In this document: positions 37 to 26,879 of the stretch, in pieces
Layout: every line of letters begins with the position of its first letter
Position numbering within the stretch: the stretch's first letter is position 1
Origin: an uncultured bacterium
GTDB taxonomy: Bacteria; Poribacteria; WGA-4E; WGA-3G
Assembly (NCBI GenBank): GCA_964623585.1
Contig: CAZURU010000007.1
Span: 1 to 32,691, forward strand
Direction of reading: 5' to 3'
DNA length: 32,691 bases
Notes under the pieces: generated by a model
What the model was told of the DNA's origin: nothing
Seen by the model: the letters and a program-made list of their open reading frames with translations, nothing else
The model's database searches: none
Program-made: the position numbers and the translations under genes

Positions 37-395
37 TCATTGAAGTGGGACAAAGACGATTTGGTCCACAAATTGATCTTCTTTGGATGTACCAGCGATT
101 CGTATCAACTCGCGAAGAATCGTTCCCATTGACACATTGGGATTAATCATGAAAACTCCCGGCACATGGTGTCCTGCTGCCAGATGGTCAGAAAGATGTT
201 TTGGTATAGTATTTGGATCATTTGTCACCAAAATGAAATTATGCTGCTCACACCACTTTAGGATTTCAGGGTCTGGTATGCTTCTCGCGGGGCACCATCA
301 TTGCCAATCGCCAAAACTGTTATTGATGGTTTATGAAATTGCAATTGCGTCCGGTATTTTGGAGAAATGTTTTCATCTATCAAATACCGAAGCAT
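37..395 (-). pseudogene. DUF5615-type PIN-like toxin gene, split by a 1-nt frameshift
   Basis: ATG at 395 gives MLRYLIDENISPKYRTQLQFHKPSITVLAIGNDGAPREAYQTLKS, then TAA at 258-260. A second frame, open from 297 to 37, continues PDPEILKWCEQHNFILVTNDPNTIPKHL...VFVPLQ. Joined, they give the MxxxLxDEN ... DPEIL ... ILVTxD pattern of DUF5615 (Mut7-C/PIN-like). The span is 359 nt, one nt short of in-frame. The ATG lies 2 nt after the stop of the upstream DUF433-ending gene. Confidence 0.6.
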
Positions 396-397
396 TT

Positions 398-3300
398 CTA
401 TTCCTGTTCTTTTTTTGATGGAGATGGTGTTGTTGCGGAGTCGTTTTTAGGAATGTTCATGTGTGAATCATCAGATACAACTTGTCTTTCTGCTTTAAGT
501 TGACGTAGTCGAACAACACCCGACGGCGGATTCTTTTCGTATTCCTCCCGTAAGATCTGGCTGAACTGGAGTTTATCTGCTAAATAGCTTCCTATTTTTA
601 TGGGATTTTGGAGGTAATAAAGAATCGTAGCGTAAACCTCTTCCAATCTCAGTGTAGGATAGTTATCAACAATGTCCTCTGGAGTTTGTGACAGGTGAAG
701 AGATTCATACAAGACAGTTTCAATACCGATGCGCGTGCCTTTTATTCGAATTTCATTCTCTGACAAAAAATCAAAGTTATCTTCAATAGTTGGATAGAAT
801 TGTGAGTAATCCTCAATTTGTCTAAGAATATGATTCTCAGTAGGGGAATATATAATATATCTGCCTTGAATTCGATTTGCAAGTTGTCTCAGTACTGCCT
901 TGCTTGATCGTTCTGCCGTAAGTCCAGCCAATAATCCGAATGTCAGATATTTGCGCTGACTATGAAGCATTGGTTCTTGCAACAGCTGAAAGAGGAAATC
1001 GACTGAAGCGTTTAATGCTTTTTGTAGACCCATCTTTTGCCCGTTCAGAGCATGGACTAAACTATTAAAGGGCTCAATAAGGTTCCAATTTGCCTGTTTT
1101 AATGCTTCCATTAACGTGTCCGTATCAAACTCCGTGTGATAGTAGTTGGAACAGACAAGTTGAATTGCCATTTTATTGTACTCATTTTTATCAAGGACAT
1201 TTTGATTTAGGCAATGTTCCAAAACAACTTGTGTCCACACACCTTCAATTTGGAAGTTTGTTCCAGCATCGTCGTTGAGCTGGGATTTTGCGTAGGTTCT
1301 AAGTCGTTCATCGTCCGAAAGGAGTAGGTATTCTGACTGACTTGCGATGAGAAGCGTGTCTATAAATAACGGTTGAAGCCTGCCATCTAATTCCTTTTTT
1401 CGGAGTTGATTCATTTGTAGTGCAGCGGTGCCTGGAATAACCTCACAGTTTTCCCTAATCCATTTGATCAGGTCTTTTAGACGTTCTACGCTACGTTTTA
1501 CATCATCAGGGTTTATCATGTGTCTTACATATCGGTTCCCTTGTTTCTCAATGCTCATACCTTCTCGTTGCGACCACATACCTTCTTGTTCATGAATCAT
1601 TTGCAAAAGGGCATCAATAGTTGTTTGTGCAACAGCAAGTTTTCCAAAAGTTTTGACAACAGTATTGGCAGCTTCTAAACAGTGTAAGGTAATTAGCGAA
1701 ATAAAGTCCACTACTAATTTAGGCTGCGAATTTTCGAGCAATGCAAGAGCATTTCTTCTCTCTTCAGCACTTCCTAAACAACACCTGATACCTAAGTCAG
1801 GCTTATTTATGAGAAGACTCCACAAGTCTAACACATTGTGCCCTGTCCAACTCATGAAAACTCCGATTGGAGGTTGGTGTTCTTTATATACATTTTCAAT
1901 CTGTAGCGAGGCTTCGTGTTGTTTGTTAACAATGTCATACAACGGTTGAAATTTTGCTGGATCATCAGTCTCTTTAGAATCGTCTAATGTTATGGACCCC
2001 ATTCCTTGATCCTCAGGAAAGAGTTTAGGAAATTTGCGGAAACTCTCTTGGAGGGCATCAACATATTTGCTTTTAATGGCAGTGATTTTTCCCCTTCTTG
2101 TTGTACCGGTCAATGTTTTCCCATAGATAACTTTTTCATTTACAGTTTTACCAAGTAGTCGCTTTACAAAAGGTTTTTTGATATTTTGTTCTCTACGTTC
2201 AATATCTGCATCATCACGGTCAACTATAATATACGAGACAGATTCATCGGAACTGTCAATTTGGACAGCTGTATCTTTTCCAACTTTAGTGGGGTTTAAT
2301 ACCTCAGGAATTTGCTTTTCTACTTGATAGAACAATCCAATGTATTTCAGATGAGCATCAGGTTCTTTGGAATACGTCCTTCGCGCTTCGTACATGATCT
2401 GAAGTGCTTTTTCTGGTTGAGATCTGACCTGATGTAAATGGGAAAGCTGAACACATGCTGGCAAAGAAAGACCCTTAATAATAGTAATATCATTAGAATT
2501 GAGAATACTATCTAGCAAATTATCAATATCATCTTCTTTGCAAGCACGATAGTAAACCATTCCGAGACGGATTCGCATATCATTATCGTTATGATATTTC
2601 TTCAAATATTCCTTACATACTGCTTCGGCTTGGTTCATATCGCCGATTTGTACATAAATAATGACCTCCATCTCAGTTACATTTTCAAGCGGGCCATATT
2701 TCTTTCGGAGTCCTTTACAAATTTCAAGTGCCTTTCCTATTTCACCAGCGTTATAGTAACTTTGTAGCAACCATTGTGTCAATTGAGAATTCTGGTTTGT
2801 ATTAGCAAGTTTTTCGTAAAGTGTTGCTGCTTCTTTAAATTGGTCATGATTGTAGAGTTGATCAGCTAATTCCAATTTATCATGTAGATTTTCACTATCT
2901 TGAACATAGTTGCATGCCAATTTGAGTTGGGAAATAGCCTCTTCACGCTTTCCAGTTTTACTTGAAATCATAGCCGCGTTGATAAGATTCAATACATTTG
3001 TCGGAGATGATTCCAGCATAGGTATTAGTATTTGTTCTGCATCTTCAAAACGTTCTATAGCTATATAATTACGAACAAGAAGACGATTTGCCTCATCTTG
3101 TAATTCAGAAGGTAAGTTGGTCTTTAAAAAATCGGTGAGTTTGGTTATTGCTTCTTCATAGCAATTATTTGCAAATAGAATATTAGCAATTAAAATCTGA
3201 GCTTCAAAGATTTCTGGTTCTGACTGAATTCTTTCCAAATATTCAATAGCAGCTTCATGATTCCCTTGTTCAAATGCCAATATCGCCCTATTTTTTAATA

Positions 3301-4726
3301 GCATAGATAACTTAGAGTCCAACGGTTCAATTTCTATGGCTACATCAAGATCTTTAATTGCGTCTTGTGATTTACCAAGAAGTCGTAGAGCTGTACTTCT
3401 GTTAATTATCCAATCTGTTCGAGCGATTCGTAACTCAGTATCGGCAACACTATCCCATGCTTCTGTTAAAAGTTCCACAGCTCGACTTAATTGTTCCTTT
3501 TCTGAATCGTGGGACTGAATGGTATACATGTCAGAACGATCATCCAATATTTCTTGGATCAAAATTGTTGCAAGTGAAGCTTTAAAACCCTGGTTATTTT
3601 CCAGTTCCCCTGCCACGGAGATTTCACCCCATTTTTTCGCTTCTTCAAAATTTCGGCGTTGCTTTGCGATCTCACTTATAGCATGTGCAATTTGTCGCGT
3701 ATCTCGTAAATAGTCAGGAATTTTAGCAATTACTTCTTCAAGTGGTACTTCCGCCGCAGAAATTCCAATAAGGATAATATAGGCATCCTTATTTGTCTCA
3801 TTCTTTTTTAATGCCTGCTTTGCGTAGTCCGCAGCTTTTTCCGTTTCTCCCAGTAAGTGGTGAGCTATAGCCCGATTAGAAAGTGCCTTTTCATCTTCAG
3901 AATTATATTGAAATGCTTCAATTATCAACTTTGCTGCTTCTCGTTCGTTATTAAGAACAGACTGAGCAGCTGCCATATTTGTTAAAATGTTAAATTTTGA
4001 GATTTTTGAAGTTGAAGTTTCATTCCCAATGCGCTGCCATAAGTCATCTAATCGTTTAAAAGCAGTTTTGGGGTTGTATTCAAGTAAATCTTCTTTCGCA
4101 CTGTTAATTATTAATTGGTGTTCTTTTGCCAGTGCAGTATCAACTGCATCAGAAACAATCAAATCAATGTATTTGCTTGAAAGATTAGGTGGTTGTGCAT
4201 GTAACCATTGGATTCCATCCAGGATTGCTTGGTTTTGTTCCCTTAAATGCTTTTGGCCTTCCAATTGTATTCTATCGGATTCAAGCATCATTTGAGTAGC
4301 AGCCTGTTGGTTGTGTGGTAAACGGTCATTGAAATTTGTGATTGCTTTTTCTATAACCGGTTGGAGTCTATGCACAAGTTCTTCAGTTGTAAATTGATTT
4401 CCGGGCCAAATAATACATTTTTGAAAAAGCTCTGTGACATTTAAAAGTTTTTCGTTTCTGTCTAATGAAACCAATTCAGTGATATTAAAATCTTCGAGAG
4501 AGGCAAGGACCTGATCAAGCGTGTTCTGATCTACCTTAATTATTTTTGGATTGTCGATATTGACAAGACGCGCAAGACGCGGGGCAATTTGCTTAACTGC
4601 ATCAACAAATGATTTTTTGAAAAGATCTTCTGGTGTGCTGTTGGTAAAGTGTTTTCTAATGACATCAACACCACCAACAATTGAGGCACTGCCAGATACG
4701 AGATTTATAAGTTCAAGTATTTCCAT
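398..4726 (-). CDS. Giant 1442-aa multidomain protein: unknown N-domain, TPR-like solenoid, GreA/GreB-C-like domain, PIN-like domain, C-terminal DUF433 HTH
   Basis: Uninterrupted 4.3-kb ORF. Helical TPR-like repeats span aa ~215-800 (nt 2327-4084). Aa 812-886 (nt 2069-2293), VGKDTAVQIDSSDESVSYIIVDRDDADIERREQNIKKPFVKRLLGKTVNEKV..GKITAI, fits the GreA/GreB C-terminal pattern. Aa ~1003-1200 (nt 1127-1720), KLVVDFISLITL ... SEYLLLSDDERLRTYA, fits the PIN acidic-residue pattern. Aa 1318-1375 (nt 602-775), IRIKGTRIGIETVLYESLHLSQTPEDIVDNYPTLRLEEVYATILYYL, fits DUF433. A consensus promoter lies upstream. Confidence 0.85.
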   Translation of the reverse strand: MEILELINLVSGSASIVGGVDVIRKHFTNSTPEDLFKKSFVDAVKQIAPRLARLVNIDNPKIIKVDQNTLDQVLASLEDFNITELVSLDRNEKLLNVTELFQKCIIWPGNQFTTEELVHRLQPVIEKAITNFNDRLPHNQQAATQMMLESDRIQLEGQKHLREQNQAILDGIQWLHAQPPNLSSKYIDLIVSDAVDTALAKEHQLIINSAKEDLLEYNPKTAFKRLDDLWQRIGNETSTSKISKFNILTNMAAAQSVLNNEREAAKLIIEAFQYNSEDEKALSNRAIAHHLLGETEKAADYAKQALKKNETNKDAYIILIGISAAEVPLEEVIAKIPDYLRDTRQIAHAISEIAKQRRNFEEAKKWGEISVAGELENNQGFKASLATILIQEILDDRSDMYTIQSHDSEKEQLSRAVELLTEAWDSVADTELRIARTDWIINRSTALRLLGKSQDAIKDLDVAIEIEPLDSKLSMLLKNRAILAFEQGNHEAAIEYLERIQSEPEIFEAQILIANILFANNCYEEAITKLTDFLKTNLPSELQDEANRLLVRNYIAIERFEDAEQILIPMLESSPTNVLNLINAAMISSKTGKREEAISQLKLACNYVQDSENLHDKLELADQLYNHDQFKEAATLYEKLANTNQNSQLTQWLLQSYYNAGEIGKALEICKGLRKKYGPLENVTEMEVIIYVQIGDMNQAEAVCKEYLKKYHNDNDMRIRLGMVYYRACKEDDIDNLLDSILNSNDITIIKGLSLPACVQLSHLHQVRSQPEKALQIMYEARRTYSKEPDAHLKYIGLFYQVEKQIPEVLNPTKVGKDTAVQIDSSDESVSYIIVDRDDADIERREQNIKKPFVKRLLGKTVNEKVIYGKTLTGTTRRGKITAIKSKYVDALQESFRKFPKLFPEDQGMGSITLDDSKETDDPAKFQPLYDIVNKQHEASLQIENVYKEHQPPIGVFMSWTGHNVLDLWSLLINKPDLGIRCCLGSAEERRNALALLENSQPKLVVDFISLITLHCLEAANTVVKTFGKLAVAQTTIDALLQMIHEQEGMWSQREGMSIEKQGNRYVRHMINPDDVKRSVERLKDLIKWIRENCEVIPGTAALQMNQLRKKELDGRLQPLFIDTLLIASQSEYLLLSDDERLRTYAKSQLNDDAGTNFQIEGVWTQVVLEHCLNQNVLDKNEYNKMAIQLVCSNYYHTEFDTDTLMEALKQANWNLIEPFNSLVHALNGQKMGLQKALNASVDFLFQLLQEPMLHSQRKYLTFGLLAGLTAERSSKAVLRQLANRIQGRYIIYSPTENHILRQIEDYSQFYPTIEDNFDFLSENEIRIKGTRIGIETVLYESLHLSQTPEDIVDNYPTLRLEEVYATILYYLQNPIKIGSYLADKLQFSQILREEYEKNPPSGVVRLRQLKAERQVVSDDSHMNIPKNDSATTPSPSKKEQE

Positions 4727-4798
4727 CGATTTCTACCCTTGTCAAAAATTTATTTCATAGTGTCTTATCAGTTTATCTGTTGCTACTTTTATTTTATC

Positions 4799-4827
4799 AT
4801 TATAGCATATTTATGTTGCGTAGTCAA
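4799..4827 (-). promoter_or_regulatory. Sigma70-type promoter for the giant gene
   Basis: The minus strand reads TTGACT (4827-4822), a 17-nt spacer, then TATAAT (4804-4799). This is ~70 nt upstream of the ATG at 4726. Confidence 0.5.
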
Positions 4828-4880
4828 GGTAAAAGGAGTCTGAGTTAAAATGATTAAAGTTGGTGATTGTTAGAACGGGA

Positions 4881-5006
4881 TTAACCACTATACCAAATCG
4901 GGAAAGCAAGTTCTTTCTTCTTAAGCCCTACCAACTCCGAAGCAAGATCACATTTCAAAATTTCATAATGCAAAGTTGGCAATTTCTTCAAGTCCGATAT
5001 TACGGA
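4881..5006 (-). pseudogene. 3-prime stub of a type IIG-like RM gene (paralogue of the C-terminus of the 990-aa protein)
   Basis: The minus-strand frame reads SVISDLKKLPTLHYEILKCDLASELVGLKKKELAFPIWYSG*. The 990-aa protein ends ...GITSDNVLESMQTLREML..KCDLDAELMGLKLKGVAFPSWYDG*. Hand alignment of the last 25 codons (4881-4955 vs 10262-10336) gives 60/75 identical nt. No start codon or N-terminal body is present. Confidence 0.65.
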
Positions 5007-5791
5007 TTAATCCTTACATTCCACACAGAAAGTTCACCTATAATTTCCTTGTCTGGAATTTTATCTAAATCCATTAAATCATATAGATCTTTTCCTAAAT
5101 ATGTTGGGGTTGCCAGAAGCATGTGACTCGCGCAAAATTTATAATCTTCAATTATTGGTGCTTGAGTTCCTGAAATTATATAATTTTTGATTAACTTTAA
5201 CATTTCTCTACTTATGTTATGAAATTTATGTTTATCATCTTGGTTCATTTGATTTATTTTTTTTGCTAATTTATCATCATCAACTGGATCGTATTCCCAT
5301 TTTCCATGTCCGTGGTCATACTCTATTATAAATTTGATAATACACAAACATCTATATGATATCGAATCTATTATATCAAAATATTCAAATGCACTCCCCG
5401 CATCTATTCTAGAGTTTTCCATTAGTTGTATATTTTTCCAAAAGGATCCGATATATCTACTTTTTTTACATTGAATGTCAAGTAGCATAGATTTTATGGT
5501 TCTATAAAATATTTTAGATGGGTTATTTGTAGTGTTTTCACTATACCAATCTGTCCTTAAAGATTTCTCTTGAAATTCGATATCATTTTGAGCTTGCTTT
5601 ACTGCTTCAACTATCGAATGTGTTATATTTTCCTTTATAAATTCTGGCTCATTGGGTAACATTCTATTAATAAGATTTTTTAAATGCTTAGGTATAGACT
5701 GCATTGTCTCTATATTAGAAACAAAACTTAATATTTCCTTAGCTGCTATTTCTTCAGTAGCTATTTCAATTAATTGCATAATTTCATTCAT
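5000..5791 (-). CDS. Hypothetical protein, 263 aa, extremely AT-rich orphan
   Basis: Long ORF in a very AT-rich stretch, with AAGGAG 15 nt upstream of the ATG at 5791. I recognise no motif. No HEPN Rx4-6H, P-loop or HExxH signature was seen. Confidence 0.55.
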   Translation of the reverse strand: MNEIMQLIEIATEEIAAKEILSFVSNIETMQSIPKHLKNLINRMLPNEPEFIKENITHSIVEAVKQAQNDIEFQEKSLRTDWYSENTTNNPSKIFYRTIKSMLLDIQCKKSRYIGSFWKNIQLMENSRIDAGSAFEYFDIIDSISYRCLCIIKFIIEYDHGHGKWEYDPVDDDKLAKKINQMNQDDKHKFHNISREMLKLIKNYIISGTQAPIIEDYKFCASHMLLATPTYLGKDLYDLMDLDKIPDKEIIGELSVWNVRINP

Positions 5792-5939
5792 TATATTATG
5801 ATATACTCCTTAAACGTTCACAATGGATAGTTTGTACTGCCAGCGGATACTCCTTTCAGTATATGGATATTATACAACAATCTTGTTTTAGAGAGGGTCC
5901 GAATTTCCGATGGTTGTACACCTAACAAACTCACTTGTG

Positions 5940-6262
5940 TGATGTCCGCTTTCCTTCACTAACAACTTTTTTTGTTCAGTTTTGAGTTGAAGTAAGGGAA
6001 CAACAGCGGATTACGGATTTTTCCCTTGTTCTTCTCGGGCCTTTAGGCAGAATTCCATATAATCCACAAAATGAGCACTTACTTTTTGTTGATTTTGAAG
6101 GAATATAGAATTGTGGCGTAGGCGTGTTATAACGTTACCGTGTGTAAACGTTGGTCAATCTCTTCTTGTGTTTTGCCATAGAACAGATTCTATACCTATA
6201 GGTGTTCCCTTGATAAGAACATCATCTTCAGCCAAAGAGTTGAAGTAATCTTCTATTTGCAT
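5940..6262 (-). pseudogene. Decayed DUF433 gene, paralogue of the C-terminal ~110 aa of the giant protein
   Basis: From the ATG at 6262: MQIEDYFNSLAEDDVLIKGTPIGIESVLWQNTRRD*, with TGA at 6155-6157. After a frameshift it reads EEIDQRLHTVTL*HAYATILYSFKINKK. A third frame reads FVDYMEFCLKAREEQGKNP*SAVVPLLQLKTEQKKLL. This is colinear with giant-protein aa 1303-1415 (QIEDY..IRIKGTRIGIETVLY..PEDIVDNYPTLRLEEVYATILYYL..LQFSQILREEYEKNPPSGVVRLRQLKAERQVV). There are at least 2 frameshifts and 2 in-frame stops. Confidence 0.65.
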
Positions 6263-6361
6263 GTTTAGATCTCTTAAGTTGAAATCAGCATTTGCTTCAT
6301 TTTACCAATGTGATTCATCTGATATAAACCTTAAACTGATGACTCATTAAAAGCACAAGAG

Positions 6362-7684
6362 TTACTCTAAAATAAAATTACCTTCTGCATCAAAGGCAGG
6401 AATCCATTTTTTCTCAAAACCAAAAGCCTCATATACCTCTTCGACTAACTTATAAGCAACATGATCTGGGACAAAATTTGAGTCAACAGTCCGTTTGGAA
6501 ACAATCGATTTTTGTTCCATGTATACATTTCTCTCGTCTTGAAATCCAGCAAATATAACATTGGATGGATTCCCTTTCGGTAACATAAATCCTTTAAGAT
6601 TATGATACTCTTGTTGGACAGAAATTCTTGAATTAATACCAGATGTCTCATAGATTGTCTTAACCAATCTCAGGAATGACACCGGGAATTCACATACTAC
6701 GAATGGATATAGCCACGGAGTGGAAATTCCTGACTCCTCACGTCTCCATTGAAATGTTCCAGAATTAAGTGGACAACGAACTTCAAGATAACCATTTTTT
6801 AATTGAATGATTTCCCCGCCGGTAACATTAGGACCTCTAATTCCCTCAAGCGAAAAGGATACTTCTCTTTCCAAGATTCCTGTCACGCCAAAGTTTCCGT
6901 AACGTCTATTTGGTGGATTAAATAAGATTCTACGTATATCCTCATTCTTTGTATTAACAACGTTAGGATTGAGGTTTTCAGGAACAGCGAGGATGCGGTA
7001 ATAAGGTTGACCTGACAGATCATTATCAAATCGCAATTTCATTAGATGAAGTAAATCTTTCGCTTCAAATTGTTCTAAAGGATCATCCTCAAGTGTCATG
7101 GAATTTCTTCTGTCTACATCCATGTTTCGTAATATTGTATCCAATTTTGCCTCCATCTGAGTCGTAATTGGGGGTTGATAACGCATTAATAGATCTTGAA
7201 TCAGCTCGGATATAGGAAATTCTCTTGTATCATCTCCATATCGCTTCACAAAATTGGTTGAGTTTTTCCATTTAAAACTGTGAGGACGCATTCCACTCTG
7301 CGGAATATGAATAATTACAAGATCAATATCTTTATTATTCCATTTCAGGGAGCAAGGCTCTACCTCAAAATTAGGGATTCGTGGATCAATATTTTGCAAG
7401 CAAATTCCCTTGATACTTTTAGCAATGTTTACAGCATCAGGTACTGGACAGAAACCTTGGGCAATCTTATTCTTTTCCGATATACCAATGATAATATAAC
7501 CTCCTTCTGCGTTGGCCATTGCTGTAACATCTTTGCAAATTTCGCGTTTTCGCTTATCAGCATCATTGGGATCTTCGGGATAATCTTGCTGTTTGAAGTC
7601 AATCCATAGGTTTTCTTCCTGTTTACCAATAAGATCCTTCAGTTCTTGGTCAGTAATATGAGAAATGGGACGATTTTCAAACAT
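6362..7684 (-). CDS. AlbA_2 (Schlafen-type divergent AAA DNA-binding) domain protein with unknown ~270-aa C-terminal domain
   Basis: The N-terminal ~150 aa (ELKDLIGKQEENLWIDFKQ ... ICKDVTAMANAEGGYIIIGISEKNKI ...) fit the AlbA_2 pattern. The ORF-track start at 7786 adds 34 Cys/hydrophobic residues with no RBS. The ATG at 7684 (MFENRP) has GGAG 13 nt upstream and is preferred. Confidence 0.7.
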   Translation of the reverse strand: MFENRPISHITDQELKDLIGKQEENLWIDFKQQDYPEDPNDADKRKREICKDVTAMANAEGGYIIIGISEKNKIAQGFCPVPDAVNIAKSIKGICLQNIDPRIPNFEVEPCSLKWNNKDIDLVIIHIPQSGMRPHSFKWKNSTNFVKRYGDDTREFPISELIQDLLMRYQPPITTQMEAKLDTILRNMDVDRRNSMTLEDDPLEQFEAKDLLHLMKLRFDNDLSGQPYYRILAVPENLNPNVVNTKNEDIRRILFNPPNRRYGNFGVTGILEREVSFSLEGIRGPNVTGGEIIQLKNGYLEVRCPLNSGTFQWRREESGISTPWLYPFVVCEFPVSFLRLVKTIYETSGINSRISVQQEYHNLKGFMLPKGNPSNVIFAGFQDERNVYMEQKSIVSKRTVDSNFVPDHVAYKLVEEVYEAFGFEKKWIPAFDAEGNFILE

Positions 7685-7811
7685 CGTTAAATTCAGACTC
7701 CTTTTTAAAGCAGTATCACTATGAACAAGTGAGCATGCCCTACAATATGCAAAGGTATGAACGAGTATAAACACAACTAAAGTCATGAAATTATCCTCTG
7801 TATGAGTATGT

Positions 7812-7928
7812 TTAGCGTGTTTTGTTTAAAGGATCAGGTTGTTTAACCTTGTGCTGTTGACTAATCACACCTTGGATACTCGGTTCAGTCCTTTCGTGTT
7901 TCAAGATAATACCATCAGTTAGTAACGC
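7812..7928 (-). pseudogene. Second 3-prime stub of a type IIG-like RM gene
   Basis: The minus-strand frame reads ALLTDGIILKHERTEPSIQGVIS..., against SLLIDVLGI...LREMLCAEPSIHGG in the 990-aa protein. At DNA level, cacaccttggatactcggttcag (7868-7890) matches cccaccgtggatactcggttcag (10348-10370) at 21/23 nt. The stub starts immediately after the stop codon (7929-7931) of the upstream remnant and diverges after EPSIQG. Confidence 0.55.
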
Positions 7929-8625
7929 CTAGTTTCGGTCAAATATACATTCACGAAGTTCCTCGTAGACCTTGGTTTCCTTCGTGATACATTTTGAGAG
8001 ATTCTTTTTGAACATATCTGTACTGATGTTCGTCTTTATACCACAAAACTTCTTTATTCGATCAATTTCATCTTTGACGTTTTGATTATTAATATCCGTA
8101 ACAAAGTTATCATAGTCTTCCTCACTGAACATTAGACCTTCAGACTGACAGTATTTTACTAGTATTTCTTTATCAAAGAGATAATTTTCTAATTCCCAAC
8201 GTCTGAGGACTCTATGGTGAGTTGGATTGTTAACCAAATAAAATTGACGATCCCCCTCTTGAACTAATTTTCCAGATGCCATATCACGATCTTTGAGTAC
8301 CCAAATTTCCATGTTTCGCAATTCCTTACCAAGAATTCGTATTGTTATGTCCCTTCGTTGATCCAGTTCGGTTTGTCCACCACTTGACACAAAAACAGTA
8401 TCGGGAAAATCACGAGAAAATATAATTTCGTAAATAGAATTCTGATTTTTCAGTACCGTATGAACGAAACTTTTGTAATTCTTGCTCAAAAGCATCAAAT
8501 ACAGAACTCTTTCCACACCCGTTTGGTCCAACCATAGCAACTATCTTTTTTGGTTGTTGCCCAAGATCAATCGTCAAATCATCAAATCGCTTAAATCCAG
8601 TCATTTTTACGGTGTTAATTCTCAT
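7929..8625 (-). pseudogene. Collapsed P-loop ABC-ATPase / Toprim (OLD- or PARIS AriA/AriB-like) remnant
   Basis: The ATG at 8625 has GGAGA 6 nt upstream. MRINTVKMTGFKRFDDLTIDLGQQPKKIVAMVGPNGCGKSSVFDAF is the N-terminus plus Walker A of SMC/OLD-type ATPases, but the frame stops at 8410 after 71 aa. The overlapping frame down to 7929 encodes ..IWVLKDRDMASG..HHRVLRRWELENYLFD.., resembling the C-terminal half of DUF4435/OLD-type Toprim domains. The 697-nt span is far too short for an intact member of either family. Confidence 0.5.
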
Positions 8626-8852
8626 TTTTATTCTCCATTTTAGATTGTAATTAATTATGAATTCACTTAGAATAATGGTTCCAATATCAAGATAGGAAAT
8701 TATTACTCATTGTAGACACTTGTGAAGTCAACCCATTCCAGCATAAGATAAAGGATCGGCTAACAATAAACATGTATAATTATACCATTAGGCGAAATAA
8801 ATGTCAAGGCAAATTACGAATATTACATAATATATTTATTATTATTTTCATC

Positions 8853-8881
8853 TTTACTTAGAAATAGTCATGTGGTATAGT
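8853..8881 (+). promoter_or_regulatory. Putative sigma70 promoter with extended -10 for the XRE/ImmA operon
   Basis: TTTACT (8853-8858), a 17-nt spacer ending in TGg, then TATAGT (8876-8881). This lies ~35 nt upstream of the ATG at 8917. Confidence 0.35.
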
Positions 8882-8916
8882 AAATACGGTATATCAACAC
8901 CTAAAGGAGCATAACT

Positions 8917-9327
8917 ATGAAATTAGGTCAACGCCTACGCCAGATCCGTAAGGGAAAGAAATTGACTCTTAAAGAACTGAGTCTACAAGCCAATATTTCA
9001 GTTCCATATTTGTCGGATATGGAACGTAGTGTTGTAAATCCATCAATTGACACACTTCAAAAGGTAGCAAAAGCGTATAACATGACCGTCAAAGATCTAA
9101 TTACCGATGTTGATGAACTTGGTGAATCAACATATGCGAATTACCCTGACGAATTTACATCATTTCTTAATGAGTATGAAACGACCTACAATATTGATAA
9201 TGATTGGAAAGAACTATTGATGAAAATTAACTTTCGGGGAAAACAACCCACAACTGTCACAGAATGGCTTGAGTTATATCTTTATCTCAAACGGATTTTA
9301 TCACCAGGAGAAGATAATAATGAATAG
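8917..9327 (+). CDS. XRE/Cro-CI family helix-turn-helix transcriptional regulator (136 aa)
   Basis: MKLGQRLRQIRKGKKLTLKELSLQANISVPYLSDMERSVVNPSIDTLQKVAKAYNMTVKDLI is a canonical HTH_3 pattern. AAGGAG lies 7 nt upstream of the ATG. Confidence 0.88.
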   Translation: MKLGQRLRQIRKGKKLTLKELSLQANISVPYLSDMERSVVNPSIDTLQKVAKAYNMTVKDLITDVDELGESTYANYPDEFTSFLNEYETTYNIDNDWKELLMKINFRGKQPTTVTEWLELYLYLKRILSPGEDNNE

Positions 9328-10156
9328 TGTACAAAAACAGATAATTCAATTGGTGCGAAACACCGTCAATACATATTCGTCAACGCCTATTCCAAATATT
9401 GATGAGATTTGTGATGGTTTAGGATTAGAAATTAGGGAAGATACCATTACAGACGGTAGAGACGGGATGATTGTTGACAAAACCAATATTATTATCAACT
9501 CTAAAATAAGATACGAAGAACGAAAAAGGTTTACAATATTTCACGAAATCATGCATTATCTAATTGATAATGACGACGATTTAATCTCTATACTAAACGC
9601 ATACACTCTTTATAAGGATGGTGAATATGATAGACAATTAGAGATATTTGCGAACATTGGAGCAGCTGAATTTCTGATGCCGAGTGAGGAATTAAGAAAA
9701 CTATATGAAGAAAAAGATTTTAATGTTGAGTTGATTCTCTATGCTGCCAAACTATTTAAATCTTCAACAATTGCTGCAACAATCCAACTTGCTCAAGTTG
9801 CACCAAATGAATGTATTACAGCTATTTGCGAATTTACGCAGGATAAAACAACTCTTATGCAATCCCAGATTATTACTCAGAAAGAAAAATCTCTCAAACG
9901 AAAGTTGCATGTAAGCTATGCTGCTTCGTCACCAAATGTTAAATACATGTTGGCAAAAAATACAGTTATTCCGGGTGATCATCTGATACAGGATGCTTTT
10001 TTACAAGATGTTCCAGTTGAAGGAAAAAGTTACGTTCCTTTTCGGAGTGGTAAAAAAATGCCTTGCTACTGTGAAGCATTGGCAGATGGTGACAGGATCT
10101 ATGCGTTATTCCATTTGACACCTCCACCGAATCCTGACCAATTGAGCCTTATTTAA
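9320..10156 (+). CDS. ImmA/IrrE family zinc metallopeptidase with ~130-150-aa C-terminal extension (278 aa)
   Basis: FTIFHEIMHYLIDND contains the HExxH motif in an ImmA/IrrE-like context. The ATG at 9320 overlaps the upstream stop (ATGAATAG) and has GGAG 9 nt upstream. The ORF-track start at 9269 lies inside the HTH gene and is rejected. Confidence 0.85.
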   Translation: MNSVQKQIIQLVRNTVNTYSSTPIPNIDEICDGLGLEIREDTITDGRDGMIVDKTNIIINSKIRYEERKRFTIFHEIMHYLIDNDDDLISILNAYTLYKDGEYDRQLEIFANIGAAEFLMPSEELRKLYEEKDFNVELILYAAKLFKSSTIAATIQLAQVAPNECITAICEFTQDKTTLMQSQIITQKEKSLKRKLHVSYAASSPNVKYMLAKNTVIPGDHLIQDAFLQDVPVEGKSYVPFRSGKKMPCYCEALADGDRIYALFHLTPPPNPDQLSLI

Positions 10157-10261
10157 GATTTTCTGTTGATGATATTAAATTTTAAGTACTTGAGGCATTA
10201 GGCATAGAAATGGAGTTTCGATTGCTTGATATGTATGGACTCATAGATCGTGTCTATTGGA

Positions 10262-13234
10262 TCAACCATCATACCAACTCGGAAAAGCAACTCCCTTCAG
10301 CTTAAGCCCCATCAACTCCGCATCGAGATCACATTTAGACTGCTTCCCACCGTGGATACTCGGTTCAGCGCAGAGCATCTCGCGAAGTGTCTGCATAGAC
10401 TCCAATACGTTATCACTTGTAATGCCCAACACATCAATCAACAGCGAACGGTCTAATTCCTCGCGTACAGGATCATGCGCGCATTCGTTAACTGGCAGCA
10501 TCCGTTTATATTTCAACCGTTCAAATATCGCCTCAGCATTTGCTAATGCCTCATAGGAGAGTTCACGGACATCCAGCGTAGGTAGTGTCCCTAAGGTATT
10601 GAGTGTTAGAATACCGCGACCCGCTTGTTGCTTTCCACTATGTATCCAATGGCACATTAAGCCCAATGTTGAGTTACACCACAGCGCGAAAGCGGTTTCG
10701 TGCTGTGGACTTTCAAATGCTACGTTAGTTATCCTGTTAACCCCAACCGAAGGTGCCGCCGTTACGAGTACCAGGGTTGAGTTGGCATTGAATCTCAAGT
10801 ACAAATTGTAATGAGCTCTACTGTTTTTAGTCAGGATTTTCCGAAGATTTTCTTCTGTGTTCCCACGCGGGATGCCTTTAGAGTCAGGTTCAACAAACAT
10901 TGATCGCTGAGTTTCACTTTTCAAACTCCATAGACAAGGATATCCATCGCCCTTGGCATCACCTTTAATCATGTCAAACGGTCCGTCTTTTCCATAGACA
11001 CTTTCTGGGTGCCATCCAACCTGCGCTATGTCCTCTACACGACACATAGGGACTTCAACATTAGTTGTTTGCATCGGTAAATATAGGACACCTCTTTGTA
11101 TGCTATATGCAGCCTGAATCAATGCCATCGATCGTACGCGCGACACTCCCCAACCCTCACCAAGTAAGAGTGGACAGTCTAACATTTGTCCAACAGTGTC
11201 ATTGCCAATTCTGATTATATCTCCGCCATTAGGCGCGTCTTCTAAGCGTCGTGTGCTGTCGTTTCGGTTAACATAGTTCGCAATTTCGACCGCTTCTAAG
11301 ATGCTCTGTGGTCGCCTGTTCAGGGATATGAATTTCCCTAGTCCTGTATCGGCACCCGTTCCTTTCTTTGCTACCACAATGCATTCTGCCATGCCAGTAT
11401 CCGCGGAGAACGCCGCGTCTTCTGCCTTTGCTTCGGCAATGGTAAGGACCATGACGTTGTGATATTCTATTGCCAACATGCCACGCATTTTTTGCATTGT
11501 AGATGACGTTAGAATTGTTGCTGGCAAAATGAAACCCATTGTGCCACCGTACTTAAGTTTCCTGTCTGCAAGGTCTACAAAATAGGATGCGAGTCCGCTC
11601 AAGCCATGTGCTATTCGCGAATCTTTACCTCGCAGTACTGCCTGCATTGCCTTCTTATCTACCTCTGGACGATCACTGCCCTGGAATGTGGTTTTTGGTA
11701 TACTACTACCTTGATCTGTTCCTGGTTTCGTAAAGGGTGGGTTTTGAATCACAATGTCAACATCACTATGCTGGAACGTCTGCTGGAGTTTGACTACGGT
11801 GTTCTCCTCACCGCCTACTTGTTCAGCCTCTGTATCAAACAGTTTCATATCATCAAGCAATTCCAATGAACCGATAGCGTAACCGCCACTATCCATGATC
11901 CCATAAGGTGCAGTTACTATTTGTGTGCCACCGATTTTGATGTCAGCATAGGTACTGGCAAGTGCTGCAGCAGTAAGGTGTGTAGCATTTGGCATAATAT
12001 CTACACCGCCAAGGTTCTCCTCTAACATTTTTTGATGGATCTCCCTGCCGTTGCCACCTGCTTGTTCATACAGAGACAAGATACGTTGATAGACTCCGTT
12101 GAGCAACGCGCCTGTGCCGCATGCAAAGTCTGCAACTTTCGGGAGTTTACCCTTCGGCAGTTCAGGCATCACAAGCGTAGAGAGCAACACCGCACTTTCG
12201 GGAAGTGTGTAGTTTGCTTTGACGTATTTTCTATCAGTGATGAGCTTCTGAAATACGATACCCGCGAGTTCGTGTATCTGTGCGATACCGGTATCAACAA
12301 GGTCTTTGGCAGCCTCACATAAGAGCCTTAAGATATGTTTGACAAGTTTGTCATCAGTCGCGAGTGCTTCAACGAGGTTACGCGCATCTTCAAAGATGGG
12401 ACGATAGTTAACCTTGAGGATTGTGTTCCAGTCATCAATAACATCAGCATAATCAATTGTCGGGAGGAGTTGACGGAGTGAGCGGACATATTCCATCTCT
12501 GTTTTACCAGCAAGGGAACTCTGAAACACAAAAGCATCGGTGATTATCAGTGCTGCCATACGGAGCGTTTGAATGTTGGGGATTCGCGATTCAGGGATCG
12601 CTCCTACAGAAGAATCTTCCTCAGAAAAGACCTCTTGGTGCAGAATAGTCTCAATTTTCTTGCCGATAGCAGGATGTTCAACGATAGCATCTTCAAGTAG
12701 GTAAGCTGCCTTATTGACGCTTTTCTCCATATCTTCAGCTGCCGCTTCAAGGTGAGAGTTCGGCATTGCACCGACGCGGAGTGCATTTGCTATGTCCGCA
12801 ACCGTACCTGTTGCCCATCCGTTTGCCGGGAAATGTCCAACGGTGTCACCCACGGTATTGACAAGCTTGTATTGGAGGTCATCCGCATCACGTAGTTGTG
12901 CGTTGATATCCCTTCCAGGCATCGTCTTAAATCGGTCAGGATATAGGATTGCCATGACGTTATTGAGGGTTTTTCCAACGACGTGGTATTCCGTTTCAAG
13001 TTCGAGAACAAGTCTGTCTTCTGCTTGGGTAATAAGATTCTTGGCATTCGTCGTGGTCAAAAACTTTGCTTCAATGCCGACAGGTTCTCTACCCCGTTCA
13101 ATAACGATAGCATCAAGTTCACTGTTGCCTTTAAAGAAGGCATTGACTTCGGTTTCGAGTTCCCATCCGTGACGCATGTGCCGTAAGATGTTCACTAATT
13201 CATTTGTGATTGTGGTTTCGCGTCTTTTTGGCAT
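10262..13234 (-). CDS. Single-chain restriction-modification enzyme candidate (type IIG/IIL-like): N-terminal PD-(D/E)xK-like nuclease, gamma-class N6-adenine methyltransferase, C-terminal target-recognition region (990 aa)
   Basis: SAM motif I DFACGTGALL (nt 12101-12130) precedes motif IV NPPF (nt 11732-11743), the gamma order. N-terminal ELDAIVIERGREPVGIEAKF gives D41-x13-E55-x-K57. About 480 aa follow NPPF. No separate methylase or specificity gene is adjacent. Confidence 0.75.
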   Translation of the reverse strand: MPKRRETTITNELVNILRHMRHGWELETEVNAFFKGNSELDAIVIERGREPVGIEAKFLTTTNAKNLITQAEDRLVLELETEYHVVGKTLNNVMAILYPDRFKTMPGRDINAQLRDADDLQYKLVNTVGDTVGHFPANGWATGTVADIANALRVGAMPNSHLEAAAEDMEKSVNKAAYLLEDAIVEHPAIGKKIETILHQEVFSEEDSSVGAIPESRIPNIQTLRMAALIITDAFVFQSSLAGKTEMEYVRSLRQLLPTIDYADVIDDWNTILKVNYRPIFEDARNLVEALATDDKLVKHILRLLCEAAKDLVDTGIAQIHELAGIVFQKLITDRKYVKANYTLPESAVLLSTLVMPELPKGKLPKVADFACGTGALLNGVYQRILSLYEQAGGNGREIHQKMLEENLGGVDIMPNATHLTAAALASTYADIKIGGTQIVTAPYGIMDSGGYAIGSLELLDDMKLFDTEAEQVGGEENTVVKLQQTFQHSDVDIVIQNPPFTKPGTDQGSSIPKTTFQGSDRPEVDKKAMQAVLRGKDSRIAHGLSGLASYFVDLADRKLKYGGTMGFILPATILTSSTMQKMRGMLAIEYHNVMVLTIAEAKAEDAAFSADTGMAECIVVAKKGTGADTGLGKFISLNRRPQSILEAVEIANYVNRNDSTRRLEDAPNGGDIIRIGNDTVGQMLDCPLLLGEGWGVSRVRSMALIQAAYSIQRGVLYLPMQTTNVEVPMCRVEDIAQVGWHPESVYGKDGPFDMIKGDAKGDGYPCLWSLKSETQRSMFVEPDSKGIPRGNTEENLRKILTKNSRAHYNLYLRFNANSTLVLVTAAPSVGVNRITNVAFESPQHETAFALWCNSTLGLMCHWIHSGKQQAGRGILTLNTLGTLPTLDVRELSYEALANAEAIFERLKYKRMLPVNECAHDPVREELDRSLLIDVLGITSDNVLESMQTLREMLCAEPSIHGGKQSKCDLDAELMGLKLKGVAFPSWYDG

Positions 13235-13517: not shown

Positions 13518-15854
13518 CTATTGTTTTCTTTTGTCTGCTGACCATTGACACCTATCGATCCAATAACGCGCTGAGAGTTTTGTTCCTTTATGGAGTGTTT
13601 CAATATTTGCTATTTCTGTAAATATTGCCGCAGCAGTTGCGTAATCTTTCTGATAGTAATTACAGATTCCTAATAACCGCTGGGTTCTTAATAGTATATC
13701 TAAATGAATCTCTTTGTCATCCGAAACTTGATGGAGTTCCACTACCTTGTTCAAATAACGTATACTTAAATCCCATGACCTCTCTTTATACAGTAACTCA
13801 GCAATGAGATAATAAGCTAACCATTCTTCAGGTTCTCCAGCAATTATCTGATGCAGCAGTGCCATTTTGGTAGCACTTCCTACCTGTCCATCTGAACTAA
13901 CTGAAATTAGGACATCTCTTAACAACTCTTGTGTTTCTTTGCCGTAGCGACTATTCAATGACGCAATCCGAGATAATATCCTGCGACTGGTCAATTCTCT
14001 TGGTGCATAAGATGTCGCATCTTCATATAGAAACAGTGCTTCGTTTACATTGTCATTCAACCATTGCATATCACCCAAAAGTAATGAAACTTCGGCTTTA
14101 TAAGATGAATCCTGTCTCTTCATAAGTTGTCTTGCATACGATTCCGCGAGGTCAAAATCTTTCGCTTGAAATGTACTATACATCAGCCCTCGCAAGGTCA
14201 GTGGATTGTCAGGTTCATGGAATAGCATTGAATTAAATGTTCTGATAGCAGCCCTATAATCCTTTCTGTAATATGCGTTCCAGGCTTTTGCGCGTAATGA
14301 AGCCATCTCGTGCGCGCACACCTGTTCAAATATTCCACCACGTTTAAGTCGCCGTTCTGCATACCTCTTTTCTATTTCTGTCAATAGGACTGTATCTGAT
14401 AAGAAGTCCAGCCATTCTTGCTCTAATTCAACTAATTCCTTCCCATATACCTGAGTTAAATTCCCAGTTGGAAAGGCATCCTTTAGCATATCAATACCAT
14501 ACGCATCAACAAGATAACGAATAAATGATCCAGCCAGTAGGTAGCTGCGTGATCCTGCATGTCTCCAAAACCCTAACCCGATTACACTGGATAGAGATGG
14601 TGCGACGTTGAGTTCACGCATCGCTCTTGCCCATTGGTGAACTGTGAGTTTTCCTTCATCCCAATCTGCTGCAACTGCAATACCCTCGTGAATACCTACG
14701 TTTAGACTTACTTTCCATGGAGACCAATCGGCTGTGAAGACGTGTGCAAGTTCATGCTTTAAGACAGGATGTGGGAATCCCTGAACATGTAAATGGAATC
14801 CGTACCCAAACGGGTCCTCAACATAAGTATTGCCAGCACCTATCAGCCGTTTCTTCTGCTCTGGTGAAGTATATAGATAAGCACGCACTTTTCTGGAAAT
14901 GTCAGACTGCAAATATTTTTCCAACTGTGAGTACTGAAACTCACAGTCATCAGCGAATAGATCTATATCTTCTTCAAGGTCTTGTGAATAGTATATCTTA
15001 AAATGGGCTGTTTCTCTAAATCCTCCTAATGCTTGTTCTATATCACTGCGTGATGGACGGATGCCTATTTTCCCGGCGAATACTTCAAAGCACATAATAG
15101 AAATGAATAAGACACACACGACAGCAGTCCCCCAAACGGACTTTCTATATTTCAGAACGTTCAGTTTTCTCCAATTCAGTTTTGGTATAAAACCGCTCTC
15201 TCTCCCGATTTCACACGTCATGATAGAGACAGATGTAAACAAAAAAGCCAATACAAACGTTTCAGTTCTTGAAAATATCAACACATCTGTAATGGAGATT
15301 ACGAAATCATAAATCGGACCTGGGAAATAACCGAGAATTGGATGATATGCAAATACAGGTGGGTGAAATATCAGATTAGAAATAACAGGAATTAACGACA
15401 CTAACAGAAACACTATGTATGAGAGATAAGATAGCCATCTCTTCTTTATCAATAGACCGAAAAAAACACCTGCAGCCGTTACTGCTAAACAACTTAACAC
15501 GGGTAGAATAAGATAGAAAAGAAAACCCTCGCTGTAATCGCAGTTTTTTACCCTTAACGAGTTTAGCAGTATGATCACTAAAGGGACAATTAGGAGAATA
15601 GCATTGGCGTATAGCGCACGGATGAGACATTCAAGGACGACTCGTTTAGGTGAACCCGACAGTAATTCCGGTTGTTTCTTTAGAACGTGAATTTCAGTGA
15701 TAGCAACATGTGCTGCAGCAAATGAAATACATAAGGTTACTATAGCACAGAACTCATATCCCAAGATATTAAACAGGGGAATTGTCGTAAGAATGAATGA
15801 TAGACCAACAAAACCAGCGAACCAAAGCCAGTATGAAACAGTTTTAAAAATCAT
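13518..15854 (-). CDS. Polytopic membrane protein with Peptidase_MA-like (HExxH) domain and C-terminal TPR repeats (778 aa)
   Basis: The N-terminal ~260 aa hold multiple hydrophobic helices. VLKHELAHVF ... GIHEGIAVA matches a gluzincin HExxH plus downstream E, as in Peptidase_MA_2. The C-terminal ~280 aa are TPR-like. Confidence 0.75.
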   Translation of the reverse strand: MIFKTVSYWLWFAGFVGLSFILTTIPLFNILGYEFCAIVTLCISFAAAHVAITEIHVLKKQPELLSGSPKRVVLECLIRALYANAILLIVPLVIILLNSLRVKNCDYSEGFLFYLILPVLSCLAVTAAGVFFGLLIKKRWLSYLSYIVFLLVSLIPVISNLIFHPPVFAYHPILGYFPGPIYDFVISITDVLIFSRTETFVLAFLFTSVSIMTCEIGRESGFIPKLNWRKLNVLKYRKSVWGTAVVCVLFISIMCFEVFAGKIGIRPSRSDIEQALGGFRETAHFKIYYSQDLEEDIDLFADDCEFQYSQLEKYLQSDISRKVRAYLYTSPEQKKRLIGAGNTYVEDPFGYGFHLHVQGFPHPVLKHELAHVFTADWSPWKVSLNVGIHEGIAVAADWDEGKLTVHQWARAMRELNVAPSLSSVIGLGFWRHAGSRSYLLAGSFIRYLVDAYGIDMLKDAFPTGNLTQVYGKELVELEQEWLDFLSDTVLLTEIEKRYAERRLKRGGIFEQVCAHEMASLRAKAWNAYYRKDYRAAIRTFNSMLFHEPDNPLTLRGLMYSTFQAKDFDLAESYARQLMKRQDSSYKAEVSLLLGDMQWLNDNVNEALFLYEDATSYAPRELTSRRILSRIASLNSRYGKETQELLRDVLISVSSDGQVGSATKMALLHQIIAGEPEEWLAYYLIAELLYKERSWDLSIRYLNKVVELHQVSDDKEIHLDILLRTQRLLGICNYYQKDYATAAAIFTEIANIETLHKGTKLSARYWIDRCQWSADKRKQ

Positions 15855-15878
15855 ATTTGAAAATAAGGAGCAACTAAA

Positions 15879-16358: not shown

Positions 16359-16375
16359 TACACAATCACTTTATA

Positions 16376-17284: not shown

Positions 17285-17293
17285 AAAACCCTC

Positions 17294-26579: not shown

Positions 26580-26654
26580 GGGGGATTGTCCTTCAAAGTT
26601 ATTTGTAATTGTATCTATAACTTTAGGACATCTGCCCACTTTATTCAACTATTT

Positions 26655-26670: not shown

Positions 26671-26828
26671 TGTTATAAGACACAATATTATATATGTCTT
26701 GTACCGATATATAGTGGTTAGTTTTTTACAAAAGGTTAACTGGCACTTCATAGGTTATACTAATAATACTATAGTTTGGACAGTTTCTATAATGACTTAA
26801 CTTAAGATTACAATAACTGTCTGCATAA

Positions 26829-26855
26829 CTATACACCTGTCGCCCCGCTGGGGCT
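26829..26855 (+). repeat. 27-bp hairpin repeat, copy A1
   Basis: ctatacacctgtcgccccgctggggct. The stem is gcccc/ggggc with loop gct. Identical to A2. Confidence 0.9.
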
Positions 26856-26879
26856 AAAGATTATTGTATATTTGCATTT

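Follow-up and report, generated by a model that had tools for sequence, protein, structure and literature searches.

Insertion with long target duplication occurs at restriction-modification (RM) loci with no other mobile elements (Nobusato 2000; Furuta, Abe & Kobayashi 2010, PMC2853133), and TgvAB is embedded in a type I RM operon (bioRxiv 10.1101/2024.04.04.588119). TPR-GreA/B-C-PIN (TGP) conflict systems have a varying N-terminus and are "mostly standalone genes with few conserved neighbours"; it has been proposed that TGP proteins detect RNA polymerase that has been hijacked and then set off a death effector linked to them (Kaur et al. 2021, PMC8195603). The TGP pair Bab/Agp has been shown experimentally to be an abortive-infection system (bioRxiv 10.1101/2024.11.07.622273), and abortive-infection genes that act as guardians of RM are known as PrrC in the EcoprrI locus and as PARIS (review PMC12707154). 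The locus considered here comprises a type IIG-like RM gene and the genes behind it (positions 398-13234) in a stretch of 32,691 nt, hereafter the window, from contig CAZURU010000007.1 of assembly GCA_964623585.1. Poribacteria live in symbiosis with sponges and are known for their wealth of defence genes, and this region is probably an RM-anchored array of defence cassettes on the chromosome of such a symbiont, a member of Candidatus Poribacteria.

The locus and long target duplication share direct repeats of >30 bp that flank the insert and are single at the empty site, as well as the linkage to RM and the lack of mobility genes. In the window, the repeat is 78 nt long and borders an insert of 5.3 kb (4956-10261; published inserts, <20 kb), in which scans of the window open reading frames (ORFs) with Pfam and PADLOC revealed no integrase or transposase. 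Among the homologous loci, which are designated by L numbers, L027 and L017 represent one chromosomal site at which the RM end occurs either once (L027, empty) or twice, flanking 2 kb of cassettes (L017, occupied). In place of R and M genes, the inserted DNA of the window holds capH/capP, AriAB-like, AlbA_2, DUF433 and c10 genes. RM is the cargo in the published cases, whereas here the RM 3′ end is the duplicated target, the RM gene being target or co-traveller, and other defences are the cargo. Moreover, the repeats are 77-94% identical here rather than near-identical, the events are serially stacked, and the leftover RM 3′ end, or stub, is often nearer to a foreign RM allele.

As in defence islands and hotspots, variable defence systems occupy one slot between conserved genes, beside or inside RM loci, but the edge of the slot is here the RM stop codon, marked by repeated RM tails; no description of repeated RM tails at the edge of a hotspot was found in the literature searched. 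Displaced "orphan" modules are known from Rhs/CDI loci, and islands that bear a replacement 3′ end of their target gene are known from e14 in icd and from tRNA genes. In all of these, as here, the arriving DNA makes the gene whole again while its former end is displaced downstream, and serial arrays arise; however, the displaced piece in Rhs/CDI is a variable functional end, and the icd and tRNA islands use an integrase and a fixed att core, neither of which applies to the present locus. Tandem cassettes split by a recurring short sequence beside a fixed platform gene also recall integrons, but 398-13234 holds no IntI, the stubs do not fold into hairpins as attC sites do, what recurs is part of the platform gene itself, and each cassette brings its own promoter and may lie either way round. 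The giant protein encoded at the far end of the array has the TPR and PIN parts of the constant core of published TGPs and, between them, a weakly matching GreA/B-C-like region. It differs from them in that no variable N-terminal effector was recognized and the gene is not standalone; its family is characterized by a C-terminal DUF433, an obligate DUF5615 gene downstream and a neighbouring RM gene that recurs. In common with RM guardians, an abortive-infection-type nuclease module stands in or beside an RM locus, and a PARIS-like AriAB is among the cassettes, but TGP::DUF433/DUF5615 is linked to RM here by adjacency alone, not by signs that it senses RM inhibition. The region appears, then, to be a variant of the defence hotspot, of long target duplication and of the TGP system, documented across many genomes.

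The RM gene and the slot behind its stop codon

Comparison with relatives places the type IIG RM gene at the fixed left edge of what is evidently a hypervariable slot starting at the RM stop codon. Over 11.4 kb, comprising purC, a TPR gene and RM, the window shares 94% identity with its closest relative, L011; this homology stops at window position 10264, which is the RM stop codon, and the sequences beyond are unrelated. Altogether, 80 genomic RM loci were recovered, 79 of them from Candidatus Poribacteria, and frequently there are several paralogues per genome. Clustering of the ORFs downstream of RM over all loci distinguished at least three conserved chromosomal settings. Two settings include "empty" copies in which RM is followed directly by core genes (L027 in one, L031 and L035 in the other), while other copies carry 1-6 kb of cassettes. 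Cassettes that recur in the slot encode pAgo, PD-Lambda-4, NucC-like nuclease, CBASS cyclases with patatin or HNH-SAVED effectors, capH/capP, PARIS-like AriAB and ParE-like toxin-antitoxin pairs; genes of the TnpB-type and YhgA-like transposase families recur there too.

The slot is strongly directional. In 26/62 loci, RM is followed within 10 kb by a DUF433-type gene, always co-directional, and in 1/63 such a gene lies upstream (Fisher p 8e-9, a value that overstates independence because the loci are related), and DUF5615 is found near RM in 16/62 loci downstream and 0/63 upstream; these counts cover loci with at least 5 kb of flank. The comparison of relatives that the initial annotation had called for yielded both adjacent RM and giant genes and alternative cassettes.

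In the window, the minus-strand order is RM, AriAB remnant, AlbA_2, DUF433 pseudogene, 263-aa gene, giant gene and DUF5615; a capH/capP pair on the plus strand, convergent with RM, stands between RM and the AriAB remnant (Table 1). The GC content of the RM gene is 46.6%, that of the window is 39.5% on average, and that of the downstream cassettes is 28-38%.

The intact RM gene annotated at 13234-10262 was borne out as an ORF of 990 aa with an Eco57I-type methyltransferase (MTase) match (PF07669, 31.3 bits against a cut-off of 25.3, aa 406-588). Both motifs of the gamma-class N6-adenine MTases of type IIG enzymes (motif I, FxGxG; motif IV, NPPF/Y) are present, and DFACGTG (369) and NPPF (498) are invariant in 25 homologues. 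A motif D41...E55-A-K57, which would suit the N-terminal PD-(D/E)xK nuclease domain of type IIG enzymes, is likewise invariant among homologues, but no nuclease family model matched; the PADLOC REase_MTase_IIG match spans aa 366-426 only. There are >1,200 homologues at E <= 1e-10, of which the best 120 are 71-93% identical, and in the C-terminal third the homologues are mosaic (L064, L070 and L075). An exact-sequence look-up of the RM and giant proteins of the window returned no identical record.

RM genes stand in differing chromosomal contexts, and homology between them starts only ~9 nt before the start codon. The loci L086 (7960-8001) and L089 (4914-7967) share one context, from PhyH to TGP, and differ by a clean indel of 3,054 nt, through which L086 is without the RM ORF and the spacer; one border of the indel is precisely the RM ATG, and the other lies 33 nt short of the TGP ATG. 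These borders suggest that the RM gene with its spacer is a discrete unit of gain and loss. L020 carries two full RM paralogues in tandem (10001-13009 and 14758-17763), each followed by a YhgA-like (Transposase_31) gene; its RM-tail stub of 209 nt (8058-8266) lies upstream of the first RM copy, unlike the downstream stubs elsewhere.

RM-tail stubs at three RM families

The better preserved of the two stubs in the window, stub 3, aligns with the RM end at 10259-10336 (81% over 78 nt; blastn E 8e-14), matches RM at the protein level (67% over 24 aa; tblastn), and is found by a profile made from 79 RM 3′ ends (nhmmer E 2e-15). It is closer to the RM ends of L014 and L013 (85%), which adjoin a short TGP gene, than to the RM end of its own window (81%). 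Together with its right flank (window 4953-4835), it is 87% identical to the RM end and spacer of L014. Because the right flank of the stub is the native RM-to-giant spacer, RM must once have sat directly upstream of the giant gene, and the oldest, distal occupant of the slot in the window is evidently the TGP::DUF433 giant with DUF5615, which originally abutted RM.

Stub 2 was found by the RM 3′-end profile only (E 8e-4 over the whole window) and was detected by neither self-blastn nor tblastn. Window 8435-7865 is 82% identical to L068 15596-16166 and runs into a stub of 119 nt in L068 (16142-16260), and because this well-preserved stub stands at the equivalent position, stub 2 was accepted. 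The extents given to the two stubs by the initial annotation were too wide. Stub 3, placed at 5006-4881, is real, but homology is confined to 4878-4955, outside the 263-aa ORF, which stops at 5000; stub 2, placed at 7928-7812, is a remnant according to the profile and to synteny with L068, but only 7865-7888 matches. The ancestral adjacency of RM and giant genes that had been deduced from this arrangement agrees with the native spacer retained behind stub 3.

Isolated RM 3′ ends occur in eight of the 80 loci (L001, L003, L011, L013, L017, L020, L046 and L068, the last with two). They are about 70-210 nt long and lie on the RM strand, and all are 3′ ends; no isolated 5′ or internal RM piece was found in the 80 loci. 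At least six classes can be distinguished by their 5′ limits (about -66, -78, -113, -122, -128 and -185). In three of the classes, the members also have the cassette to their left in common: AriAB for L068 and the window, DUF5615 for L013 with L017, and a toxin-antitoxin promoter for L001, L003 and L011. Stubs are frequently closer to RM ends of other genomes than to their own; that of L017 is 77% identical to its own RM end and 89-90% to the RM ends of L018 and L079. No attC-like or terminator-like fold was found in the stubs (folding z-scores, -0.04 to +1.45). The end of the window at position 1 coincides with the location at which L013 and L017 bear a further stub after DUF5615. L001 and L003 have 98-100% identity over 1.6 kb, but this drops to 91-92% in ~300 nt about the stub (13600-14000 in each), a pattern that suggests a recombination patch or gene-conversion tract. 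A mobile repeat made of the stub and the 155 nt upstream of it in L001, L003 and L011 was considered and rejected, the 155 nt being the 5′ region of a minus-strand cassette that is free of a stub in L013.

Duplicated tails around defence cassettes are present at three unrelated RM gene families in Poribacteria. In L092, the last 188 nt of a Type ISP RM gene (N6_Mtase and Type_ISP_C, 5070-8180) recur at 15947-16134 with 90% identity, and the 7.7 kb of cassettes between gene and tail copy include an AlbA_2 homologue, AAA_15/21 and AAA_35. In type I RM operons, a distant clade of giants (52-57% identity) follows hsdM immediately in all three loci examined, in the order hsdM, TGP::DUF433, DUF5615, ..., hsdS. 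The hsdM 3′ end is repeated just past DUF5615 in L087 (12828-12999; 172 nt, 92%) and L088 (13229-13317; 89 nt, 80%); in L090, which has the same operon order, no hsdM repeat was detectable. TGP::DUF433 with DUF5615 therefore stands 3′ of an MTase gene in two RM types, type IIG and type I.

Table 1. Features of the array in the window, with the short TGP form of related loci
Feature	Position	Strand	Evidence or remark
DUF5615 (PIN-like) gene, partner of the giant's DUF433	37..395	-	PF18480, 40.3 bits on the frame-corrected translation
Giant TGP protein gene, 1442 aa	398..4726	-	TPR, GreA/B-C-like, PIN, C-terminal DUF433
Promoter-like site TTGACT-17-TATAAT with TG	4799..4827	-	RM-to-giant spacer; consensus scan 11/12
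RM stub 3 (last 25 codons and stop of the RM allele that formerly abutted the giant gene)	4878..4955	-	Non-coding
263-aa gene, divergent c10-family member, GC 28%	5000..5791	-	c10 profile, hmmsearch E 2.7e-13, full length
Solo DUF433 pseudogene, own ATG at 6262, in-frame stops	5930..6262	-	tblastn; 46-59% aa identity to solo DUF433 genes
AlbA_2/Schlafen-domain gene, 441-aa form	6362..7684 (ORF to 7786)	-	PF04326, 66 bits; PADLOC PDC-S50, 1e-8
RM stub 2, decayed RM 3′-end remnant, 24 nt	7865..7888	-	nhmmer E 8e-4
PARIS-like fused AriA/AriB (ABC-type ATPase and Toprim-like) remnant	7929..8625	-	Two ORF pieces, ~900-nt internal deletion
Perfect sigma-70 consensus TTGACA-17-TATAAT with TG	8779..8807	-	Divergent region between capH-like gene and AriAB remnant
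capH-like HTH gene	8917-9327	+	Pfam HTH_3; PADLOC capH, 3e-9
capP-like M78 peptidase gene	9269-10156	+	Pfam Peptidase_M78; PADLOC capP, 9e-27
Intact type IIG-like RM gene, 990 aa	10262..13234	-	Fixed upstream edge of the variable slot
Short TGP / junction	L013:14335-14395, L014:13405-15000, L068:18327-19925, L070:16968-18566

The giant TGP gene, its DUF5615 partner and the other cassettes

The giant protein ends in DUF433, as had been annotated (PF04255, 34.6 bits, aa 1327-1371). Its PIN domain matches PF20698 over the full model length (96.2 bits, aa 1005-1148), and several TPR families match between aa 245 and 705. The GreA/B-C-like region (~813-885) is weaker: PF01272 scores 18.5 bits at aa 817-885, under the cut-off of 26.9, and five NCBIfam GreA models match weakly there (E 5e-4 to 8e-3). 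The N-terminal ~240 aa (aa 1-238), where published TGPs bear variable effector or adaptor domains, have no Pfam match. There are 308 full-length homologues.

The module of type IIG RM, giant gene ending in DUF433 and DUF5615 that had been postulated from the window does exist in relatives: the three genes, with a TGP::DUF433 of 1432-1442 aa, are intact and adjacent in L002/L051, L018, L044 and L089. L016 has the triad with a gap of 1.4 kb, and in L085 the RM gene is broken. The DUF5615 neighbour is conserved in 15/15 giant loci examined and the RM neighbour in most; two of nine close giant homologues are without RM (L086 and L083). On the giant side, co-occurrence is based on nine close and three distant loci, and a metagenome scan with the giant alignment gave two loci. 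A short form (aa ~911-1442, PIN and DUF433, with the same promoter region) replaces the giant in L013, L014, L068 and L070. This form has 532 aa and is without the TPR and GreA/B-C parts (giant aa ~2-910), with the same junction in the four genomes. The RM-to-giant spacer with its promoter is 84-90% conserved in L013, L014 and L070. The total count of promoter-like sites in the scan was not above that in shuffled sequences, and the two best-placed sites alone are listed in Table 1.

In the window, the DUF433 domain is followed by its DUF5615 partner, but the latter has a 1-nt deletion: one C is gone from a C5 run (~288-291, window 280-300) relative to the intact genes of L013, L070 and L014, so that the gene is either a pseudogene or affected by a homopolymer sequencing error. 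A pair of solo DUF433 and DUF5615 genes is found in L005, L017, L019, L026, L029, L033 and L038. We take the DUF433/DUF5615 pair to be COG2442 with the PIN-like COG4634, which is toxin-antitoxin-like. DUF5615 is plausibly an effector held by the C-terminal DUF433 of the giant; the antitoxin-like DUF433 probably tethers the PIN-like nuclease until infection is sensed, and the solo pair resembles a toxin-antitoxin pair. A functional tie between RM and the giant is plausible as well, although sequence does not decide between such a tie and mere insertion at this place. A literature search for DUF433 together with DUF5615 found no paper with both names, a search for the term "TPR-GreAB-C-PIN" gave no match, and a sequence search of the PDB found no solved structure for DUF433 or DUF5615. 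None of DUF433, DUF5615, AlbA_2 and the 263-aa protein is represented by a model in NCBIfam.

The AlbA_2 protein belongs to a widespread family; it has 179 homologues, and the few that carry a name are all from Poribacteria. The DUF433 relic behind it matches the giant (aa 1314-1422) with 38% identity (tblastn E 8e-12), but it is nearer to solo DUF433 genes (46-59% at the aa level) than to the C-termini of giant or short forms (34-39%). No DUF5615 remnant follows it, and tblastn of the window found no giant-gene remnant upstream of it. L091 carries, in this order, a frameshifted RM gene, a small ORF on the minus strand, AlbA_2 (84% aa identity to that of the window), solo DUF433 and core genes; window 7721-6368 is 86% identical to this locus at the nt level, and window 6375-5976 is 74% identical to L091 8190-8603. 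The own ATG of the relic, its closeness to solo genes and the collinearity with L091 indicate that it stems from a solo gene and that AlbA_2 overwrote no giant. The succession of RM end, AlbA_2 and DUF433 thus appears to be the relic of a different RM-headed module. The 263-aa gene, which had been regarded as an orphan, belongs to the c10 family, members of which stand directly after RM in nine loci and before a stub in L068; the 263-aa protein itself has no Pfam or PADLOC match.

The capH/capP pair is adjacent and divergent from the AriAB remnant, with the perfect promoter consensus between them, as is expected of a CapH/CapP regulator pair. It directly follows RM in L008, L028, L037, L039, L043, L068 and L069 and flanks CBASS genes in L028, L039 and L043. 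The two ATPase/Toprim ORFs of the window are the ends of a 525-aa PARIS-like AriAB gene from which ~900 nt of the ATPase region have been lost, so that the ATPase and Toprim/DUF4435 nuclease of PARIS are not intact in this copy: window 8626-8428 is the counterpart of L009 13101-13299, and window 8423-7942 that of L009 14188-14669. The full-length homologue in L068 matches AriAB at 2e-21.

Beyond the array, a DDE_5 transposase gene lies at window 25227-26648, ~12 kb away. GC-rich palindromic repeats resembling repetitive extragenic palindromic (REP) sequences (…TGTCGCCCCGCTGGGGCT…) adjoin it in direct and inverted copies at 26822-26906 and 26976-27052, and the motif at 26822-26906 is also present in cassette spacers of other Poribacteria loci, e.g. 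L063:15966-16043.

Assembly of the array

Assembly of the array is best explained as a whole by serial, integrase-free recombination at the RM 3′ end, without in-situ duplication of one module, and probably took this course. Incoming DNA that carries an RM allele with one or more cassettes would cross over on the left within RM homology, and the right junction would fall within the last ~70-210 nt of the resident RM gene, being either illegitimate or, once the donor bears a stub, homologous. The body of the resident RM gene would then be overwritten, and its tail would stay as a non-coding stub next to the downstream genes of the resident. The predicted result, on the minus strand, is RM, capH/capP with PARIS-like AriAB, stub 2, AlbA_2 with solo DUF433 and the c10 gene, stub 3 with the spacer and promoter, and TGP::DUF433 with DUF5615. 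As short direct repeats, the stubs and RM tails may serve as homology arms for gain, loss and exchange of cassettes between paralogues and genomes. Only short and diverged repeats (<=210 nt) would persist under selection, since longer ones would cause loss of the intervening cassette. In this way, the slot would stack layered anti-phage defences behind a first-line RM enzyme. Serial acquisition explains why RM ends look foreign while right flanks are native, why stub boundaries are inherited together with the left cassette, and why the array in the window is free of recombinases and the stubs are unstructured.

Several observations weigh against this course of events. The mechanism is deduced from comparative structure alone; stub 2 is marginal by itself, being 24 nt long; and assembly errors are possible in a metagenome-assembled genome, the DUF5615 frameshift being an example. 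Three of the stub boundaries (-113, -122 and -128) fall within 15 nt, and a preferred site is possible. No stub separates the ATPase-Toprim gene of the AriAB cassette from DUF433 in L009 or L063, where REP-like palindromes are present instead, and none follows DUF5615 in L018, which indicates that stubs are not obligatory. In addition, the loci in the neighbour statistics share ancestry, and the array of L068 (RM, capP/capH, AriAB, stub, c10, stub, short TGP and DUF5615) is that of the window, which means that few independent events have been sampled.

According to the initial annotation, an ancestral module of RM, giant and DUF5615 was duplicated in situ, after which unrelated cassettes overwrote the extra bodies and left the 3′ ends. 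That the order of RM end, large gene and DUF433 end is seen twice, that L020 has full-length RM copies in tandem and that the triad is real in relatives would agree with this, and both stub 3 and the DUF433 relic on which the repeated order depends are solid. However, the relic has its own start and groups with solo DUF433 genes, not with giant C-termini. The unit of AlbA_2 and solo DUF433 is intact and collinear in L091, there is no trace of a giant upstream of the relic, and stub 3, with 81% identity to the resident RM end, is nearer to the RM ends of other genomes. Overwriting is supported for the RM bodies, with variable cassettes that start exactly at the RM stop, but not for a giant replaced by AlbA_2, and the duplication itself is improbable. 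Plain decay of a defence island, in which the fragments are random deletion leftovers among tandem paralogues without any role in recombination and the adjacency of RM and TGP reflects clustering, is no more probable than that duplication. Defence genes do cluster generally, the window does contain pseudogenes (AriAB with its deletion, the relic of DUF433 and the frameshifted DUF5615), and the two giants lacking an RM neighbour would also fit; but random loss is hard to reconcile with RM remnants that are all 3′ ends of <=210 nt, with variable DNA that begins exactly at the RM stop, with the strong downstream directionality of DUF433-type genes, and with the position of TGP::DUF433 directly behind the MTase gene in RM loci of two unrelated types.

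Site-specific integration into the 3′ end of RM, with a recombinase encoded elsewhere acting on an att-like site there, is slightly more credible than these two readings but still unlikely, and less likely than serial recombination. It would account for the stub classes at -113, -122 and -128, for the repetition of the pattern at three RM families and for the likeness of the tandem cassettes and repeats to integron arrays. On the other hand, boundaries are spread between -66 and about -185, the target sequences of the three families have no relation to one another, the stubs are without hairpin potential (z >= -0.04), and the cassettes have their own promoters and mixed orientations. No recombinase was found in 398-13234 by Pfam and PADLOC, and the Pfam scan, which covered the window ORFs and not the cassette ORFs of other loci, shows none except the DDE transposase outside the array. 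Finally, the stubs might be copies of an independent dispersed repeat (REP, miniature inverted-repeat transposable element or terminator) that resembles the RM tail, an outcome that would have undone the initial annotation as well. Small GC-rich palindromic repeats do exist in Poribacteria loci, the window included (26822-26906), but the alignment of the stubs with the RM coding end keeps register and includes the stop codon, the stubs are confined to positions downstream of RM genes and co-directional with them, the Type ISP and hsdM stubs match the local gene instead, and the 155 nt shared by L001, L003 and L011 belong to a cassette. This reading is largely refuted and very improbable.

It is conceivable, though doubtful, that serial recombination at the RM 3′ end is one side of a wider arrangement in which Poribacteria RM genes (type IIG, Type ISP and hsdM) are integrase-free landing pads with portable homology arms in their tails and TGP::DUF433 with DUF5615 guards RM as an abortive-infection module whose function is coupled to restriction, like PrrC or PARIS. 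How defence islands are assembled without obvious mobile-element machinery is an open question, for which this locus offers an architecture that can be checked. The leftover RM tails would record successive acquisitions and could drive the exchange of cassettes by ordinary recombination, and their recurrence at three RM families of a single phylum suggests that layered immunity is built in this way throughout the lineage. The locus also presents a form of TGP not described before, which combines a C-terminal DUF433 with a DUF5615 partner and a conserved RM neighbour. TGP::DUF433 with DUF5615 may thus be a tractable candidate for an RM-linked abortive-infection system, and would give the DUF433/DUF5615 pair its first functional context.

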